Source of the DNA: Candidatus Micrarchaeota archaeon | Lineage (GTDB): Archaea; Micrarchaeota; Micrarchaeia; Anstonellales; Anstonellaceae | DNA length: 12,488 nucleotides | Assembly: GCA_043810635.1 (NCBI GenBank) | Contig: JBDRNY010000026.1 | Location: 1 to 12,488, forward strand | Direction: 5' to 3' | Part shown: positions 4,794 to 12,488 of the stretch, in pieces | Numbering within the stretch: position 1 is the first letter of the stretch | Layout: each line of letters begins with the position of its first letter | The notes under the pieces: generated by a model | Seen by the model: only the letters and a program-made list of their open reading frames with translations | Told to the model about the DNA's origin: nothing | Databases searched by the model: none | Position numbers and translations under genes: made by a program

Positions 4794-4865
4794 GGGCACA
4801 TAGTCGAACGGTAAGACGCTGCCTTCGCAAGGCAGAGACTGGGGGTTCGATTCCCCCTGTGTCCA
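4794..4865 (+). tRNA. tRNA-Ala (anticodon CGC), 72 nt, no encoded CCA
   Basis: Cloverleaf folded by hand. Acceptor GGGCACA/TGTGTCC includes the G3:U70 alanine identity pair. D-stem is GTC/GAC. Anticodon stem is CTGCC/GGCAG with loop TTCGCAA (anticodon CGC). T-arm is GGGGG-TTCGATT-CCCCC. Discriminator is A. Confidence 0.9.
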
Positions 4866-4867
4866 TT

Positions 4868-5515
4868 ATGAAATCCGCAGTATTATTTTCTGGAGGGAAA
4901 GATTCGGCTTATGCAACCCAGTGGGCGCTGGAGCAGGGGCATGAAGTAATTTGGGTTAATATGCAGCCGCAGGAAGATTCGATGATGTTTCATCACCCTA
5001 ATGTAAAATGGTGCAAATTGCAATCCCAGGCTGCGGAGATAGAATTGAAAACATTTGATACAAAGCATGAGAGGGAATTAATAGATTTGGAAAATGCATT
5101 AAAGAAATTGGATGTGGAAGGGGTTGTTACGGGCGCGGTTGCTTCGGTTTACCAAAAATCCAGGATTGATAAAATTGCAAATAAATTGAAATTGGAGGTG
5201 TTTTCCCCTTTGTGGGGGAAAGATGAAGAATTTTTGAAAAAAATGTTAAGTGAAATGGAAGTGTATATTGTTTCTATTTCTGCTGAAGGGCTGGGAGAAG
5301 AATGGCTGGGGAAAAAATTTGAGAAAGAGGATGTGGATAAATTATCTGCCCTGCAGCCGAAAATAAATGTTTATTTGGAAGGCGGGGAGGGGGAAACTTT
5401 TGTTGCAGATGCGCCTTTTTTCAAAAAAAGAATTGAAATATTAAAATGGGAAAAGAAATTTGACGGAATGAGGGGGAAGGCGGTTATTAAAGAGGCGAAG
5501 TTAGTGGAGAAATAA
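4868..5515 (+). CDS. dph6: Diphthine-ammonia ligase-like PP-loop ATP pyrophosphatase (MJ0570/Dph6 family)
   Basis: N-terminal PP-loop LFSGGKDS and the C-terminal LEGGEGETF (EGGE motif), with a size of about 215 aa typical for archaeal Dph6/MJ0570. The ATG at 4868 is only 2 nt after the tRNA-Ala discriminator; the track start at 4859 is GTG inside the tRNA. Confidence 0.75.
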   Translation: MKSAVLFSGGKDSAYATQWALEQGHEVIWVNMQPQEDSMMFHHPNVKWCKLQSQAAEIELKTFDTKHERELIDLENALKKLDVEGVVTGAVASVYQKSRIDKIANKLKLEVFSPLWGKDEEFLKKMLSEMEVYIVSISAEGLGEEWLGKKFEKEDVDKLSALQPKINVYLEGGEGETFVADAPFFKKRIEILKWEKKFDGMRGKAVIKEAKLVEK

Positions 5516-6190: not shown

Positions 6191-6472
6191 ATGCCTAAAG
6201 TGACTTTTAGCAAGGACAAGATTACTGTGGAAGTGCCTGCTGGCACAAAGCTTGTTGATGTTGCGGAAAAAAACGGTGCAAACATTAATTTTTCCTGCAA
6301 AGAGGGAGTGTGCTTAACCTGCCTTGTAAATATTATTTCAGGAAAGGAAAATTTGAATCCTATGACTGAAAATGAAAAAAGCACTTTGGAAGCGTTTGGG
6401 GCAAAGCCGGGGCAGAGATTGGCATGCCAGGTAATTGTAACCGGGGATTGTGTGATTGAATCAGTGGAGTGA
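6191..6472 (+). CDS. [2Fe-2S] ferredoxin (plant/adrenodoxin-type cysteine pattern)
   Basis: 93 aa with C-x4-C-x2-C ... C ligand spacing (CKEGVCLTC ... ACQV). A GGTGATAGG SD lies 3-4 nt upstream of the ATG. Confidence 0.8.
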   Translation: MPKVTFSKDKITVEVPAGTKLVDVAEKNGANINFSCKEGVCLTCLVNIISGKENLNPMTENEKSTLEAFGAKPGQRLACQVIVTGDCVIESVE

Positions 6473-6494
6473 AAACTTTCATGAGGGATGCGCT

Positions 6495-6923
6495 ATGGCA
6501 GGAAACATTGAATCTGTTGATTTTTCTAAAGAAGGTATTGCTATAAGCAACAACTATTTTGTTGATAAAAATTCGTCTGTTCTGGATATTTTGACCGGTT
6601 CCGGGCTAAAAATAAAAGTGATAAAAACTGTGGATGAATTTAAGGGGGAGGAAACATATTCCCTGACGATTGATGGGGATGCAAGTTCTTTAGGGAAAAA
6701 AGATGTGCTGCCAGCCACATTTGAGATTAGCAAAGAGCAGTATAATACGCTTATGGCGCTTTGTGAAAAGAAGAAGACTGCACGTTTTCCTTATGGCTCA
6801 ATTACCGATGAAAAGAAGGCTGCGGAGGAAGTAATAAAAAATCTTATTGATGAAAAGCAGATGTATCCGGATATTAAAGAGGCGCTGTTTCCCACCAAAA
6901 ACTACAGCCTAACTAAGCATTAG
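6495..6923 (+). CDS. Hypothetical protein (142 aa from ATG at 6495; the ORF is open from 6456)
   Basis: In-frame ATG at 6495 is preceded by GAGGGATG (SD-like). The alternative start at 6456 would overlap the ferredoxin by 17 nt. T-rich terminator-like tracts follow at about 6985-7030. Confidence 0.55.
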   Translation: MAGNIESVDFSKEGIAISNNYFVDKNSSVLDILTGSGLKIKVIKTVDEFKGEETYSLTIDGDASSLGKKDVLPATFEISKEQYNTLMALCEKKKTARFPYGSITDEKKAAEEVIKNLIDEKQMYPDIKEALFPTKNYSLTKH

Positions 6924-7037
6924 GCATGCGCCCAAAGCATTTTTATTCATGAAACGAGCTAAAATAATTAGAGTATAACAGTTCTTTTCTTTTTTAATGA
7001 AAGTTTTTTCTTTTTTGAAAAGAAAAAAATTTCTCCG

Positions 7038-7080
7038 CTTCGCCTTCTGGCGAAGTCCAACCAACTTGCTTCGCAAGTTG
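7038..7080 (+). other. Two tandem GC-containing hairpins immediately 5' of tRNA-Ser: CTTCGCC-ttct-GGCGAAG at 7038-7055 and CAACTTG-cttcg-CAAGTTG at 7062-7080
   Basis: Perfect 7-bp inverted repeats read directly. They occupy the space where a TATA box would be expected, and no TATA-like element is seen within 40 bp of the tRNA 5' end. Confidence 0.35.
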
Positions 7081-7085
7081 ATTGT

Positions 7086-7218
7086 GCCGGTGTCGCATAA
7101 CCTGGTAGTGCGCTGGTCTTGAAGAGCCCTTTTCCACCTTTGGTGCAAAAGCCCTCGGGGAAAAGCTCTGGAAAACCAGTTCCTTACGGAATTGTAGGTT
7201 CAAATCCTGCCGCCGGCG
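7086..7218 (+). tRNA. tRNA-Ser (anticodon UGA), class II with long variable arm, interrupted by a ~50-nt intron (about 7124..7173) at the canonical 37/38 position; no encoded CCA
   Basis: Hand fold. Acceptor GCCGGTG/CGCCGGC has one G:U. D-stem is GCAT/GTGC with a 9-nt GG-containing loop. Anticodon stem 5' CTGGT (7113-7117) pairs with ACCAG (7175-7179) only if 7124-7173 is removed, leaving loop CTTGAAA (anticodon TGA). Variable arm is TTCC-TTAC-GGAA (14 nt). T-arm is GTAGG-TTCAAAT-CCTGC. Discriminator G73 fits Ser identity. The intron termini form a helix AGAGC/GCTCT compatible with a BHB-like splice motif. Confidence 0.8.
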
Positions 7219-7311
7219 TCGCTTCGCTCCGCCTTACGGCAGTCCCCCCAACAAGTTGAGGACCTACAAAGTGCGCGAGCACTGGGGCACCATCGCCATG
7301 GGCGATGATTG

Positions 7312-7326
7312 TCCTGCCGCCGGCGT
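7312..7326 (+). repeat. Exact 15-bp direct repeat (TCCTGCCGCCGGCGT) of the tRNA-Ser 3' end (7205-7219), 93 bp downstream. att-like remnant or relic of a decayed tRNA duplication.
   Basis: Identical 15-mers read directly. The intervening 7219-7259 also re-uses leader motifs found upstream of the tRNA (CGCTTCGC, GGC-AGTCC, CCAA, CAAGTTGA). Confidence 0.6.
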
Positions 7327-7412: not shown

Positions 7413-8429
7413 ATGGGCAGTAAAGCAATTCTTGGTTTGATATTTCTGTCTTTGATGCTTTTTATTTTTGTTTCAGGCTGTACCCAGGAGGCATTTGCAT
7501 GCAACAAACCATATATCCAAGTAGGCTCGGAATGCTGCCTGGACCAGGATAGCAACGAAATATGCGACAAAGATGAACAGGGGCAGCAGCCTGCCGCACA
7601 AGGTGCAAATGCAGATGAAAATGCAATGGGTGCGACTGGAGATGAGGCAGGCTCTGCAAATGCCACTGCAGATGAGAATGCAATTGGCGCGGGCGAGGCA
7701 GGCGCTAAAGATGCCGGCGTAGGCGGGGGAGGGGCATTTGAGGAATGGAAAGCTCCTGACGGCTCAATCACGCTGCAGGTGCCTGCGGGCTGGAAACCAA
7801 GTGAGAAGCAGGTGGACACGTGCACTGTAAGCTGGGCTGTGCTAGACCCTGCAGGCACGAGCTCTGCCTACATGGACAACGAGATAATGGTTCTGAAGTC
7901 TGAGGATGCGCGGCAGATGTACAAAACATATGGCATGAGCGGGATTGACAATGCTCCTGTGAGCAGCTATCTTGGGGCAGAGCAGGCAGTGCAGCAAATT
8001 ATTGCGCCGCTCACCGGCGCAAGCAATGTGCGGATAATTTATACTGATGATGCGATGAGCCAGCAATTCTCGCAGGCTGTGTGCATTGCAGGCTTTGCAG
8101 CGTGCGATGCGCGGGTTTTCGAGGCTGCCTACCAGAGGAACGGAATCCTGATGAGGGGCAAATACTTTGTGCAGACTTATGATTTCGGCGAGGGCACCAC
8201 GTGGTGGATAAATATCTGGGGCTATACTTCGCCTGCTGAAGGCTGGGACAATTCCATTCCTGTGCTGGAAAGAACATTCACCTCGGTAAAATATACTGAT
8301 GAGTGGGCTGCCAAGTGCCAGAAGAACTCTGATGAAGCAAGCGCTGTGATTGGCGAAGTGGTTAAGAGCAGGCAGGCATCGTCAGAAAAGTCAGCAGAGG
8401 AGTGGGACAAGTATATTAGGGGCGGATAA
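7413..8429 (+). CDS. Secreted lipoprotein candidate of unknown function, GC-rich relative to its surroundings, with a Gly/Ala/Asp/Glu-rich repeat linker
   Basis: AGGTGGT SD lies 5 nt upstream of the ATG. The signal peptide MGSKAILGLIFLSLMLFIFVSGC has a lipobox-like VSGC. The linker has near-tandem repeats ADENAMGATGDEAGSANAT / ADENAIGAGEAGAKDAG, followed by a Cys-containing globular domain. Composition is visibly GC-richer (roughly 55-60% by eye) than flanking genes. Confidence 0.75.
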   Translation: MGSKAILGLIFLSLMLFIFVSGCTQEAFACNKPYIQVGSECCLDQDSNEICDKDEQGQQPAAQGANADENAMGATGDEAGSANATADENAIGAGEAGAKDAGVGGGGAFEEWKAPDGSITLQVPAGWKPSEKQVDTCTVSWAVLDPAGTSSAYMDNEIMVLKSEDARQMYKTYGMSGIDNAPVSSYLGAEQAVQQIIAPLTGASNVRIIYTDDAMSQQFSQAVCIAGFAACDARVFEAAYQRNGILMRGKYFVQTYDFGEGTTWWINIWGYTSPAEGWDNSIPVLERTFTSVKYTDEWAAKCQKNSDEASAVIGEVVKSRQASSEKSAEEWDKYIRGG

Positions 8430-8483
8430 ATGCAACCCTTCCTTGCGCCAGCGCTCTCCTTCATTTAATAATATAGTGCCCCC

Positions 8484-11171: not shown

Positions 11172-11426
11172 CTACACCACCACCTCGACCTTTTTATCCT
11201 TTTTTACCTCTTCATCCGCCATCTCCATCCGTATTTTTTCATCCAAATCTTCCATCATGCCATAGCTTATCATAGTGTCCATATTGGCAAGAGCAGCCCT
11301 TAAATTGATTCCTAATAGTGGAACACCGGCAAGGGTTACAACAACATCTGCTTGAATGACAATCCCTTTGTCGAGGACCCTGCCCAGCAAGTCCACAAGC
11401 GCAGAATTTTCATCTTTCAATTCCAT
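11172..11426 (-). CDS. Gas vesicle structural protein of the GvpA/GvpJ/GvpM family (acidic C-terminal tail, more GvpJ-like)
   Basis: Core LVDLLGRVLDKGIVIQADVVVTLAGVPLLGINLRAALANMDTMISYG aligns with the GvpA consensus (LAEVLDRVLDKGVVVDxWxRxSLVGIEILTVEARVVxASVDTxLxYAE). The ATG at 11426 is preferred because the longer track start at 11477 is TTG. Confidence 0.8.
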   Translation of the reverse strand: MELKDENSALVDLLGRVLDKGIVIQADVVVTLAGVPLLGINLRAALANMDTMISYGMMEDLDEKIRMEMADEEVKKDKKVEVVV

Positions 11427-11748
11427 CCAGATCCAACTCGAAAAATGTTTGATAAATTTCACTAAGCCAATTGTCAACTTTTCTTATAGCAATATAATTA
11501 ACCCGCCCTCCCGAAACGATTTGGAGCTGCTTAACCATTTTTGAGAGTATGCATTTTCTTTTTACGATATCAACCTTTTCCAAGTCTTCCAAATATCTTT
11601 GAAAGGTAACTTTTTCACCTTGAGCAAAGATAAGCCTTCTGGTTGTCAAATGAAGGTAGCCTGGCTTCCAGGAAACCATCTGCTGAAATAACCCCTGGTC
11701 CCGGAGTACTAGCTCCTCGTTTTCTAAAGGCCTTAGTTTTTGAAACAT
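11410..11748 (-). CDS. Hypothetical protein (112 aa) with a bacterial-PH/GRAM-like signature (GYLHLTTRRLIF), embedded in the gvp operon
   Basis: ATG at 11748 is 9 nt after the GvpF/L stop, and the 3' end overlaps the GvpA/J-family start by 17 nt. The G-x-L-x-LT-x-R-x-IF pattern resembles bPH_2/DUF304-type PH domains. This assignment is tentative. Confidence 0.5.
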   Translation of the reverse strand: MFQKLRPLENEELVLRDQGLFQQMVSWKPGYLHLTTRRLIFAQGEKVTFQRYLEDLEKVDIVKRKCILSKMVKQLQIVSGGRVNYIAIRKVDNWLSEIYQTFFELDLDGIER

Positions 11749-11757
11749 GTTTATGCC

Positions 11758-12488
11758 TCATAAAAATGAATACGGAGCCCAAGGCCCGGTTATGCGGCCG
11801 GAAAGATTGTTAAAATCATCCATTTTTTCCAATTCTTCCTTAAATTGTGCGGCATTTTCTTTTTGTATAAGGCAAGAAACATTTAGCAGCATAGTTTTTC
11901 CATCTGCTTTCCTTGTTTTTCCGGAGCGCATATCACTGCAACAATTTTTTATTATGGATTGCACTTCTTTTGCGAGCTCGCTGGTTTTTTCCCCAAGTTC
12001 CTTTTTAACCACGCTTTCAAATGTCTGCTTGCACAGGTATGCATGGCCTGGCGAATCTGCTGCTTCCATTTTCTTTTTCAATTCGGCCACTCTCTCATTT
12101 TTATTAAGAATGTCCTGAAGAAGCCTTTCCCTGTCCATAAATACTTGAACACCATATTCCTGCTTGCCTCTAAGCTCGTTTAGTTTTCTTTCTAAATCAG
12201 GATGCTGCTCTTCAAGCCATTTTTGCACAGCCTCGTTTGACCCGCTATCTTTCTCTTTTATTATGGTGTCAAACCTCAAAGGAACAGCCGCGTTGAATTT
12301 ATTAAAGGCGAGATCAATGACGCTATTGTGGGCCTGTGCATAATTAATAATAACATTTTCATCCTTTGAATCATAGGCTTTAGGAAGGCAATTATGCACT
12401 ACTGCGCTTATGCCCAAATGTGGAATTGTATATACATTGTTTTCTTCTATGCCAATTTTGCCAAGGCTGATAAAATCGCCAGTATCAA
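11758..12488 (-). CDS. Gas vesicle protein GvpF/GvpL family (5' end beyond window)
   Basis: The C-terminus ...SGRITGPWAPYSFL matches the conserved GvpF/L terminal motif (GPWPPYSF). The coiled, charged central region is typical. The frame stays open past the TTG at 12417 to the window edge (upstream residues ...DFISLGKIGIEENNVYTIPHLG resemble the GvpF N-terminal beta-strand region). Confidence 0.85.
   Translation of the reverse strand, partial: DTGDFISLGKIGIEENNVYTIPHLGISAVVHNCLPKAYDSKDENVIINYAQAHNSVIDLAFNKFNAAVPLRFDTIIKEKDSGSNEAVQKWLEEQHPDLERKLNELRGKQEYGVQVFMDRERLLQDILNKNERVAELKKKMEAADSPGHAYLCKQTFESVVKKELGEKTSELAKEVQSIIKNCCSDMRSGKTRKADGKTMLLNVSCLIQKENAAQFKEELEKMDDFNNLSGRITGPWAPYSFL

Follow-up and report, generated by a model that had tools for sequence, protein, structure and literature searches.

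The second copy of the 15-mer TCCTGCCGCCGGCGT downstream of the tRNA-Ser(UGA) gene described here is the end of a short 'tRNA-end repeat array', located at the 3' boundary of an intact tRNA gene. The window under study, i.e. the entire 12,488-bp contig of a 'Candidatus Micrarchaeota archaeon' MAG, is most likely one instance of a structure that is widespread in Micrarchaeota and other DPANN archaea. As to its origin, we favour, at a probability of roughly 45%, that the array originated at the DNA level, as a by-product of repeated insertions or duplications targeted to the 3' boundary of the tRNA, by which the target was duplicated, and that it has no role in making the tRNA.

An intact, intron-containing tRNA-Ser(UGA) gene

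The sequence-only reading of this locus had described an intron-containing tRNA-Ser(UGA), and this was confirmed. Rfam recognized two tRNAs in the window, a tRNA-Ala(CGC) at 4794-4865 and the tRNA at 7086-7218, the latter with a large insertion in its anticodon loop. The tRNA-Ser gene was missed by ARAGORN at default settings; when introns are allowed (-i), the program recovers intron-containing tRNA-Ser genes in related loci. Its parts, as read from the sequence and, for the intron, from the fold as well, are as follows.

7086-7218, + strand: tRNA-Ser(UGA) gene, complete on its own (Rfam RF00005, 41.2 bits against a gathering score of 29)
7086-7123, + strand: exon 1
7120-7122, + strand: anticodon UGA, followed by A37 at 7123
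7124-7173, + strand: intron of 50 nt at the canonical position 37/38
7174-7218, + strand: exon 2
7194-7210, + strand: T-arm, with the T-loop at 7199-7205
7211-7217, + strand: 3' strand of the acceptor, followed by the discriminator G73 at 7218

The acceptor stem reads GCCGGUG/CGCCGGC, and the variable arm is long. The intron shows a relaxed bulge-helix-bulge, in which C32 U33 U34 G35 faces CUGG with three of four pairs and the bulges are AA|G and AA|A; in the closest relative, L172, the corresponding helix is perfect (CUUG/CAAG). The gene has what is expected of archaeal intron-containing tRNAs, namely a cloverleaf above the gathering threshold, a 37/38 intron and a bulge-helix-bulge, here of the relaxed type. 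An intron-like motif, GAAAAG...CCCTGG...AAAGAAAG, was found in anticodon introns of different tRNA-Ser genes (L002, L007, L102 and L066) and also in the 5' leader of L172 (4008-4100), a recurrence that suggests a mobile family of intron sequences.

The 15-mer repeat and its hairpin-bearing trailer

The two copies of the tRNA end agree in 15 of 15 bases, at 7205 and at 7312, and the earlier argument that chance is an improbable source was borne out: none of 200 dinucleotide shuffles gave two matches in the window. The second copy extends 14 nt to the left of G73 and 1 nt to its right. No further TCCTGCCGCCGGCGT copy was found in the window at ≤ 2 mismatches, the best weak match, at 8440, having three. 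The repeated leader that had been noticed is likewise real; 7032-7065 aligned locally with 7222-7252 at a score of 25 (shuffle mean 12.3, sd 2.0), which none of 1000 shuffles reached. Leader and trailer unit have a common end, G(T/A)TGATTGT, immediately ahead of the tRNA and of the copy respectively, where GTTGATTGT just precedes the tRNA and GATGATTGT just precedes copy 2. The elements of leader and trailer are the following.

7032-7085, + strand: GC-rich 5' leader with two hairpins, homologous to the left part of the trailer unit (fold, repeats, local alignment)
near 7040-7057, + strand: leader hairpin CUUCGCC-UUCU-GGCGAAG (fold)
7061-7079, + strand: leader hairpin CAACUUGC-UUC-GCAAGUUG (fold)
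7205-7219, + strand: 15-mer copy 1, exact; tRNA nt 60-73 plus one flanking T
7219-7262, + strand: trailer module 1, consisting of an 11-nt loop, an inverted copy of the tRNA end and a hairpin
7230-7233 and 7237-7242, + strand: the inverted copy in module 1, CGCC (complement of GGCG) and CGGCAG (complement of CUGCCG), both matching the 15-mer
7246-7261, + strand: module 1 hairpin CCCCAA-CAAG-UUGAGG
7263-7311, + strand: trailer module 2, two hairpins and a linker (inverted repeat, fold)
7263-7267, + strand: CCUAC, complementary to the 5' strand of the T-stem
7271-7282, + strand: GNRA hairpin GUGC-GCGA-GCAC
7291-7307, + strand: perfect hairpin CAUCGCC-AUG-GGCGAUG, then the linker AUUG
7312-7326, + strand: 15-mer copy 2, exact; terminal repeat of the array, with AT-rich sequence after it

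Of 40 bases aligned between module 1 and unit 3 of L172, 37 are identical, and the L172 unit continues directly into a tRNA-end copy; the CCCCAA-CAAG-UUGAGG hairpin is also carried by L022. Because 7263-7311 forms a second module (its hairpin has p = 0.03 against shuffles), the trailer of the window is a composite of two units with one perfect terminal copy. The CCUAC at the start of module 2 may, from its sequence, be a decayed tRNA-end copy.

Gene surroundings of the array

The sequence-only reading had taken the repeat for the edge or remnant of an integrated element, with a compositionally foreign gene next to it as cargo. This gene lies as follows.

7413-8429: GC-rich gene, outside (downstream of) both 15-mer copies

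Several general traits of an integrase-type repeat are indeed present, as the repeat is direct, non-random and drawn from the 3' terminal segment of the tRNA. The tRNA-Ser gene also sits at a break in gene order, with upstream genes kept in eight relatives and downstream genes that differ per lineage; at L007 and L143, the tRNA cassette has been flipped with respect to the same flanking genes. Mobile-element integration is, moreover, the accepted source of archaeal tRNA fragments (PMC3293823; bioRxiv 10.1101/2022.07.05.498093). What did not stand are the specifics of island and cargo. The copies are separated by just 93 bp without an ORF, and the GC-rich gene is not enclosed by them, whereas archaeal att repeats described so far are ∼44 bp long, with 9-23 kb and an integrase between them (bioRxiv 10.1101/2022.07.05.498093). 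The window being the whole contig, no second, distant copy exists on it at the mismatch limit given above. Domains recognized among the window ORFs scanned were Fic, a CAP-domain protein, FtsZ, diphthamide synthase, 2Fe-2S ferredoxin, an AAA_14/DUF4143 ATPase, GvpA and GvpL/F; neither an integrase nor a transposase or viral domain was among them, and cas domains, Cas1 and PolB were not found in the window either. Viral contigs searched for an attP gave nothing, or chance matches within the coding sequence of GC-rich phages. That the repeat is an att-type scar, or the edge of a larger element of the tyrosine-integrase type that brought the GC-rich gene along, is thus the least probable of the explanations that we considered, and a very unlikely one.

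Regarding the gene itself, its GC3 is raised (0.54, against 0.35-0.45 in the syntenic upstream genes), which speaks for the cargo reading. The product is lipoprotein-like, its C-terminal domain being conserved and its N-terminal region variable and rich in Ala, Gly and Asp; it has no Pfam match. Strong homologues number ∼58 (47-79% identity); nearly all belong to Micrarchaeota or Diapherotrites, and their GC content is 1-4 points above that of their own loci. Since the homologues show a similarly raised GC and the family is spread across these lineages, 7413-8429 is, judged by its sequence relatives, a lineage-typical gene of an uncharacterized lineage-specific family, possibly one exchanged within the phylum. 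The three homologues whose contigs were fetched lie in unrelated gene contexts, with no tRNA nearby by default ARAGORN. The downstream gene of this window should therefore no longer be taken for the cargo of an integrated element.

Three further features of the contig were observed. A 155-aa ORF at 6456-6923 is an orphan, with a homologue nowhere but in its own record (a genome scan was negative). In relatives, the ferredoxin gene (Fer2) ends ∼20-110 nt from tRNA-Ser, so the window lineage also has an insertion of ∼600 bp upstream of the tRNA. The gas-vesicle genes GvpA and GvpL/GvpF, at 11172-12417, are unexpected for a small symbiotic archaeon.

tRNA-end repeat arrays behind many DPANN tRNA genes

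To place the window among its relatives, species-representative genomes were scanned with a 21-mer from the D-arm, yielding 118 DPANN tRNA-Ser loci, and metagenomes with a 22-mer from the T-arm/acceptor, yielding 82 additional loci (200 in total). ARAGORN with introns allowed predicted ∼255 distinct tRNAs across the loci, 252 of them with enough downstream sequence. A copy was scored if it matched at least 12 of the last 13 nt of the tRNA on the same strand within 400 nt downstream. By this measure, 24 of the 252 distinct tRNAs from the 200 related loci and the window (∼10%) are followed by a copy of their own 3' end, while a rough estimate of the chance expectation is < 0.1 in the entire set. 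Among the same 252 tRNAs, the 3' end was found upstream once and as a reverse complement twice. Copies of the first 13 nt had the opposite bias, occurring upstream of 10 tRNAs and downstream of one.

The tRNAs with downstream copies include those for Ser, Ala, Thr, Gly, Met, Val, Asp and Lys, and in each case the copy follows the sequence of its own tRNA, across differing acceptor sequences. The order of complete tRNA, spacer and own 3'-end copy was seen at L007, L022, L045, L050, L060, L064, L084, L085, L102, L115, L117, L119, L127, L134, L143, L150, L153 and L172. Array-bearing tRNAs have one to three extra copies, three each at L102 and L172, so that arrays reach up to four copies. Within the 8-kb related loci we found no distant copy of a tRNA end; reading of the sequences beside the arrays showed no integrase, and a search for conserved neighbour genes gave only apparent housekeeping families. 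The structure is thus lineage-wide and not the scar of a single island: the 14-15-mer copy and homologous spacer modules are present at the orthologous loci L007, L022, L143 and L172 and at the paralogous CGA locus L102, and similar arrays stand behind other tRNA genes. What the sequence-only reading had itself named as evidence against integration is thereby, for the most part, what was observed. A literature search returned no description of such tRNA-end arrays.

Runs of N start inside or right at two arrays, the Ala array of L022 and the Ser trailer of L066; either the repeats have led to gaps in the assembly there, or the collection itself was masked.

Anatomy of the array units

The repeats have rather sharp borders. 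Counted back from nt 73, 23 of 36 copies extend over 13-16 nt and hence start at nt 58-61; the right end is at nt 73 or 74 (+0/+1) in 23 of 36. The constant part of the arrays measures 13-42 bp and differs per tRNA; the spacers measure 45-170 bp. A typical unit opens with ∼18 nt, in many cases followed by the tRNA end in inverted form, and continues with a perfect hairpin of 6-10 bp and a short linker before the copy. The perfect hairpins are significant against shuffles (p < 0.05) in 23 of 34 spacers. In several families the complement of tRNA nt 61/62-67 begins 17-21 nt, mostly 18 nt, past the tRNA end. This +18-type anti-copy is found in the window, L007, L022 (Ser and Ala), L102, L172, L178, L050 and L117, starting at 18 nt in the window and likewise in L007, L022, L102, L172 and L178. 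In L119, L134 and L153 the inverted copy reaches through the T-loop.

Units of young arrays are identical save for the hairpin module, as in units 1 and 2 of L143 and in the Ala units of L022 compared with L178. The CAAG-loop hairpin shows compensatory changes, being CCCCAA/UUGAGG in the window and L022 and CUCCAG/CUGGAG in L172. Terminal inverted repeats were not found in the spacers (in the window, none joins 7220-7260 to 7270-7311; the others were judged by reading). A loxP- or dif-like core at the tRNA end, composed of arm, overlap and inverted arm, was considered and rejected, as the bases after successive copies differ within an array.

Filled, empty and decaying sites in related lineages

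The order FtsZ-Dph6-orf5517-Fer2-tRNA-Ser(UGA), or the part of it covered by the locus, is kept in the window, L007/L121, L022, L178, L172, L143, L024 and L097; the genes downstream of tRNA-Ser are different in each lineage. Comparison of these loci did reveal empty tRNA-Ser sites. In L024 and L097 the site is empty, with Fer2 and tRNA-Ser followed directly by a T-run; the other six sites (window, L007, L022, L143, L172 and L178) are all filled, with one to three units of homologous modules. In L007 and L143 compared with L172, the tRNA-plus-array cassette is inverted in place relative to Fer2 and, in L007, also to the flanking gene family F8.

A second site of this kind is the junction of tRNA-Ala and Dph6. 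In the window, at 4794-4870, the tRNA-Ala(CGC) ends 3 nt ahead of the likely ATG of the diphthamide synthase gene, i.e. the junction is empty. The same junction is filled in L178 with two, and in L022 with at least three, tandem units of 63 nt, each of which ends in the tRNA-Ala 3' end CCCCCTGTGTCCA. Together, the empty junction of the window and the filled ones of L022 and L178 form an empty/filled pair for tRNA-end arrays.

The Ala array of L022 has lineage-specific units next to the tRNA, and a distal unit type that is common to L178. In the genome that contains L172 and L183 (L183 is identical to L102), the proximal unit is identical at the UGA and CGA loci, and the distal units resemble those of the window and L022. 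The order of the Ala units in L022 and L178, together with the proximal identity of the UGA and CGA loci, suggests from sequence comparison that new units join beside the tRNA, the proximal units being the younger ones where the order is comparable. The window does not conform well to this polarity, which counts against targeted insertion: its tRNA-adjacent unit has no intact copy and its distal copy is perfect.

Copies that are distal or old are decaying. In L178, three extra changes have occurred in the copy, compared with one in 47 nt of spacer, and mismatched copies are also present in unit 3 of L172 and in the distal Ala copy of L022. Such decay indicates that the copy is without steady purifying selection.

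The arrays and T-loop introns

An alternative is that the arrays act at the RNA level, copy 2 being an alternative or the true 3' exon, or the units serving as processing or stability elements of the pre-tRNA. In its intron version, a T-loop 59/60 intron of 107 nt (7205-7311) would be cut out by a splicing endonuclease of broad specificity. The minimum-energy fold is predicted to pair the 5' acceptor strand with copy 2 and to sequester copy 1. A T-run is absent after the first copy and AT-rich sequence follows the last (window, L007, L022, L102, L143 and L172), and the end of the copy coincides with the mature 3' end, nt 73. The insert starts at the same tRNA position (58-61) as T-loop introns do, and the Micrarchaeum epsilon2 endonuclease tolerates relaxed 59/60 introns, which it cleaved in vitro (PMC3239211). 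The motif in question (hBH) comprises the T-stem, a 4-bp helix between nt 54-57 and the intron, and a 3-nt bulge ending in U60; UGAU-UG|U before the window copy would supply three of the four central-helix pairs, and L022 all four.

The fold and L022 had made the 59/60 intron attractive initially, but a comparison of 31 true T-loop introns with 37 unit copies led us to set it aside. The true introns, taken from the same loci, interrupt the gene, end with few exceptions in YGAA-NN-U60 and show no enrichment of an anti-copy. The array units, in contrast, follow a complete tRNA and mostly lack YGAA-NN-U60, and their copies decay (L178, unit 3 of L172 and the distal Ala unit of L022). A 4/4 helix is present in two, and a 3/4 helix in five, of the 37 unit copies, which is about the chance expectation. 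Because true T-loop introns in these lineages look different, this comparison makes a 59/60 intron an unlikely identity for the spacer. No splicing is needed to complete the tRNA at 7086-7218. As to other RNA-level roles, the spacers show no sense-strand bias, 12 of 30 folding better in sense than in antisense orientation, with the Ser family folding better in antisense. The window spacer has no match to an Rfam family even at a permissive threshold, at which the tRNA alone was found; by eye, no convincing C/D-box motifs were seen in intron and trailer. Overall, we consider a function of the arrays in the RNA improbable.

True T-loop introns are themselves common in DPANN tRNA-Ser genes, being present at 31 of the 118 genome loci (e.g. 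L008, L009, L023, L094 and L096), and the YGAA-NN-U60 signature could be used for their automatic detection.

Origin of the arrays

We propose that the arrays would arise by repeated DNA-level events aimed at the T-arm and 3' end of the real tRNA. In each event, a short hairpin-bearing module would be inserted or synthesized, and ∼14-16 bp of the target duplicated, in a manner resembling target-site duplication by a transposase or casposase, or a very short integrase core. Afterwards, units would recombine unequally and decay by mutation. The tRNA would be matured from the first copy by ordinary 3' processing, leaving the second copy as a by-product. The same architecture is seen behind many tRNAs, with the end of each duplicated, which argues for target duplication rather than for an attP brought in by an element.

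The simplest competing account is a plain tandem duplication of leader and tRNA-Ser by slippage or unequal crossing-over, followed by internal deletion of nt 1-59/60 in the downstream copy and by decay, with neither targeting nor mobile DNA. The unit-like leader of the window favours it, as this leader is homologous to the trailer unit, shares its G(T/A)TGATTGT end and would be explained more simply by duplication of leader plus tRNA than by targeted insertion. Duplications also do occur at such loci: L066 is a true tandem duplicate, of promoter and 5' part of the tRNA, in L064 the 3' end of a tRNA-Met has been duplicated along with 23 nt of flank, and young arrays (L022 Ala, L143 and L150) contain near-identical tandem repeats. 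Against this account, the same precise deletion, of everything 5' of nt 58-61, would be needed independently behind many tRNAs, and the leader at most loci is an AT-rich promoter region unrelated to the units. Neither the +18 inverted copy and the perfect hairpins nor the tRNA-proximal position of younger units would be explained. We regard plain duplication as a rather unlikely general origin of the arrays, though with more in its favour than a role in the RNA.

Targeted insertion, which we prefer, has difficulties of its own. Neither the window nor the surroundings of the arrays yielded a casposase, transposase or integrase, and the spacers are without terminal inverted repeats. The inverted copy in a unit matches the local tRNA, so the insert is not a free-standing element of fixed sequence, and template switching in replication or repair could yield such a copy without any mobile element; if it took place at the palindromic T-arm, it could give direct and inverted copies as well as perfect hairpins. 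Furthermore, a purely DNA-level process would not be expected to respect the end of the mature RNA, yet the sharp right boundary, at nt 73, coincides with it.

Likeness to known systems

Like the repeats left by integrases of the SSV and pNOB8 type, the arrays place a same-strand copy of the tRNA 3' segment past an intact tRNA gene, and their tRNA loci are breakpoints of gene order. They differ in scale and number: 13-16 bp repeats and non-coding hairpin modules of 45-170 bp, as opposed to ∼44 bp and 9-23 kb, with up to four copies, many different tRNAs and no integrase found nearby.

The closest formal parallel is with the casposons, for which 14-bp target duplications, a tRNA-Leu gene as target and tandem arrays sharing one duplication have been reported (PMC4779613). 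The arrays have in common with them a target duplication of ∼14-15 bp, the tRNA 3' region as target and tandem arrays with a shared duplication; a ∼14-15 bp duplication at the tRNA 3' end fits the arrays, in which nt 58/61-73 form the repeat in most of the 36 copies. Unlike casposons, the arrays lack terminal inverted repeats, and neither a casposase nor PolB was seen; their inserts are tens of bp long, mutually related and contain an inverted copy of the local target, and the repeat differs per tRNA.

Polar growth beside an intact target also recalls the leader-proximal addition of spacers by Cas1. In CRISPR arrays, however, identical 24-47-bp repeats alternate with unrelated spacers and cas genes are present, whereas the repeats here (13-42 bp) are tRNA-specific and the spacers are related hairpin modules. 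A bolder proposal would be that the arrays constitute an undescribed class of DPANN arrays, polar and CRISPR- or casposon-like, built by an enzyme that recognizes the T-arm and 3' end of real tRNA genes, adds hairpin modules and duplicates nt 58/61-73. We would put this forward as speculation, rather unlikely in itself. In retroelements, m1A58 limits how far the tRNA primer is copied, and what the arrays duplicate is exactly the portion of a CCA-less tRNA that lies 3' of A58; if this limit applies here, the copies could even have been templated or primed by the tRNA itself.

If targeted insertion or duplication is true, the arrays record a recombination activity in DPANN archaea that is assigned to no enzyme, and they offer natural material on the origin of repeat-spacer arrays and of target-site duplication at tRNA genes. 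In addition, they account for tRNA 'fragments', and possibly for assembly gaps, beside the tRNA genes of Micrarchaeota MAGs, and they caution that not every tRNA-end repeat is the border of an island.

tRNA 5' fragments upstream of tRNA genes are also on record (PMC3293823). In our set, copies of the first 12-26 nt of the tRNA were observed 54-200 nt upstream of tRNA-Ser at L018, L032, L033, L050, L053, L064, L066, L084, L101, L102, L105 and L110, with L066 repeating the promoter region in addition. These 5' copies are often followed by a small hairpin and the complement of the copy, mirroring the 3' units.
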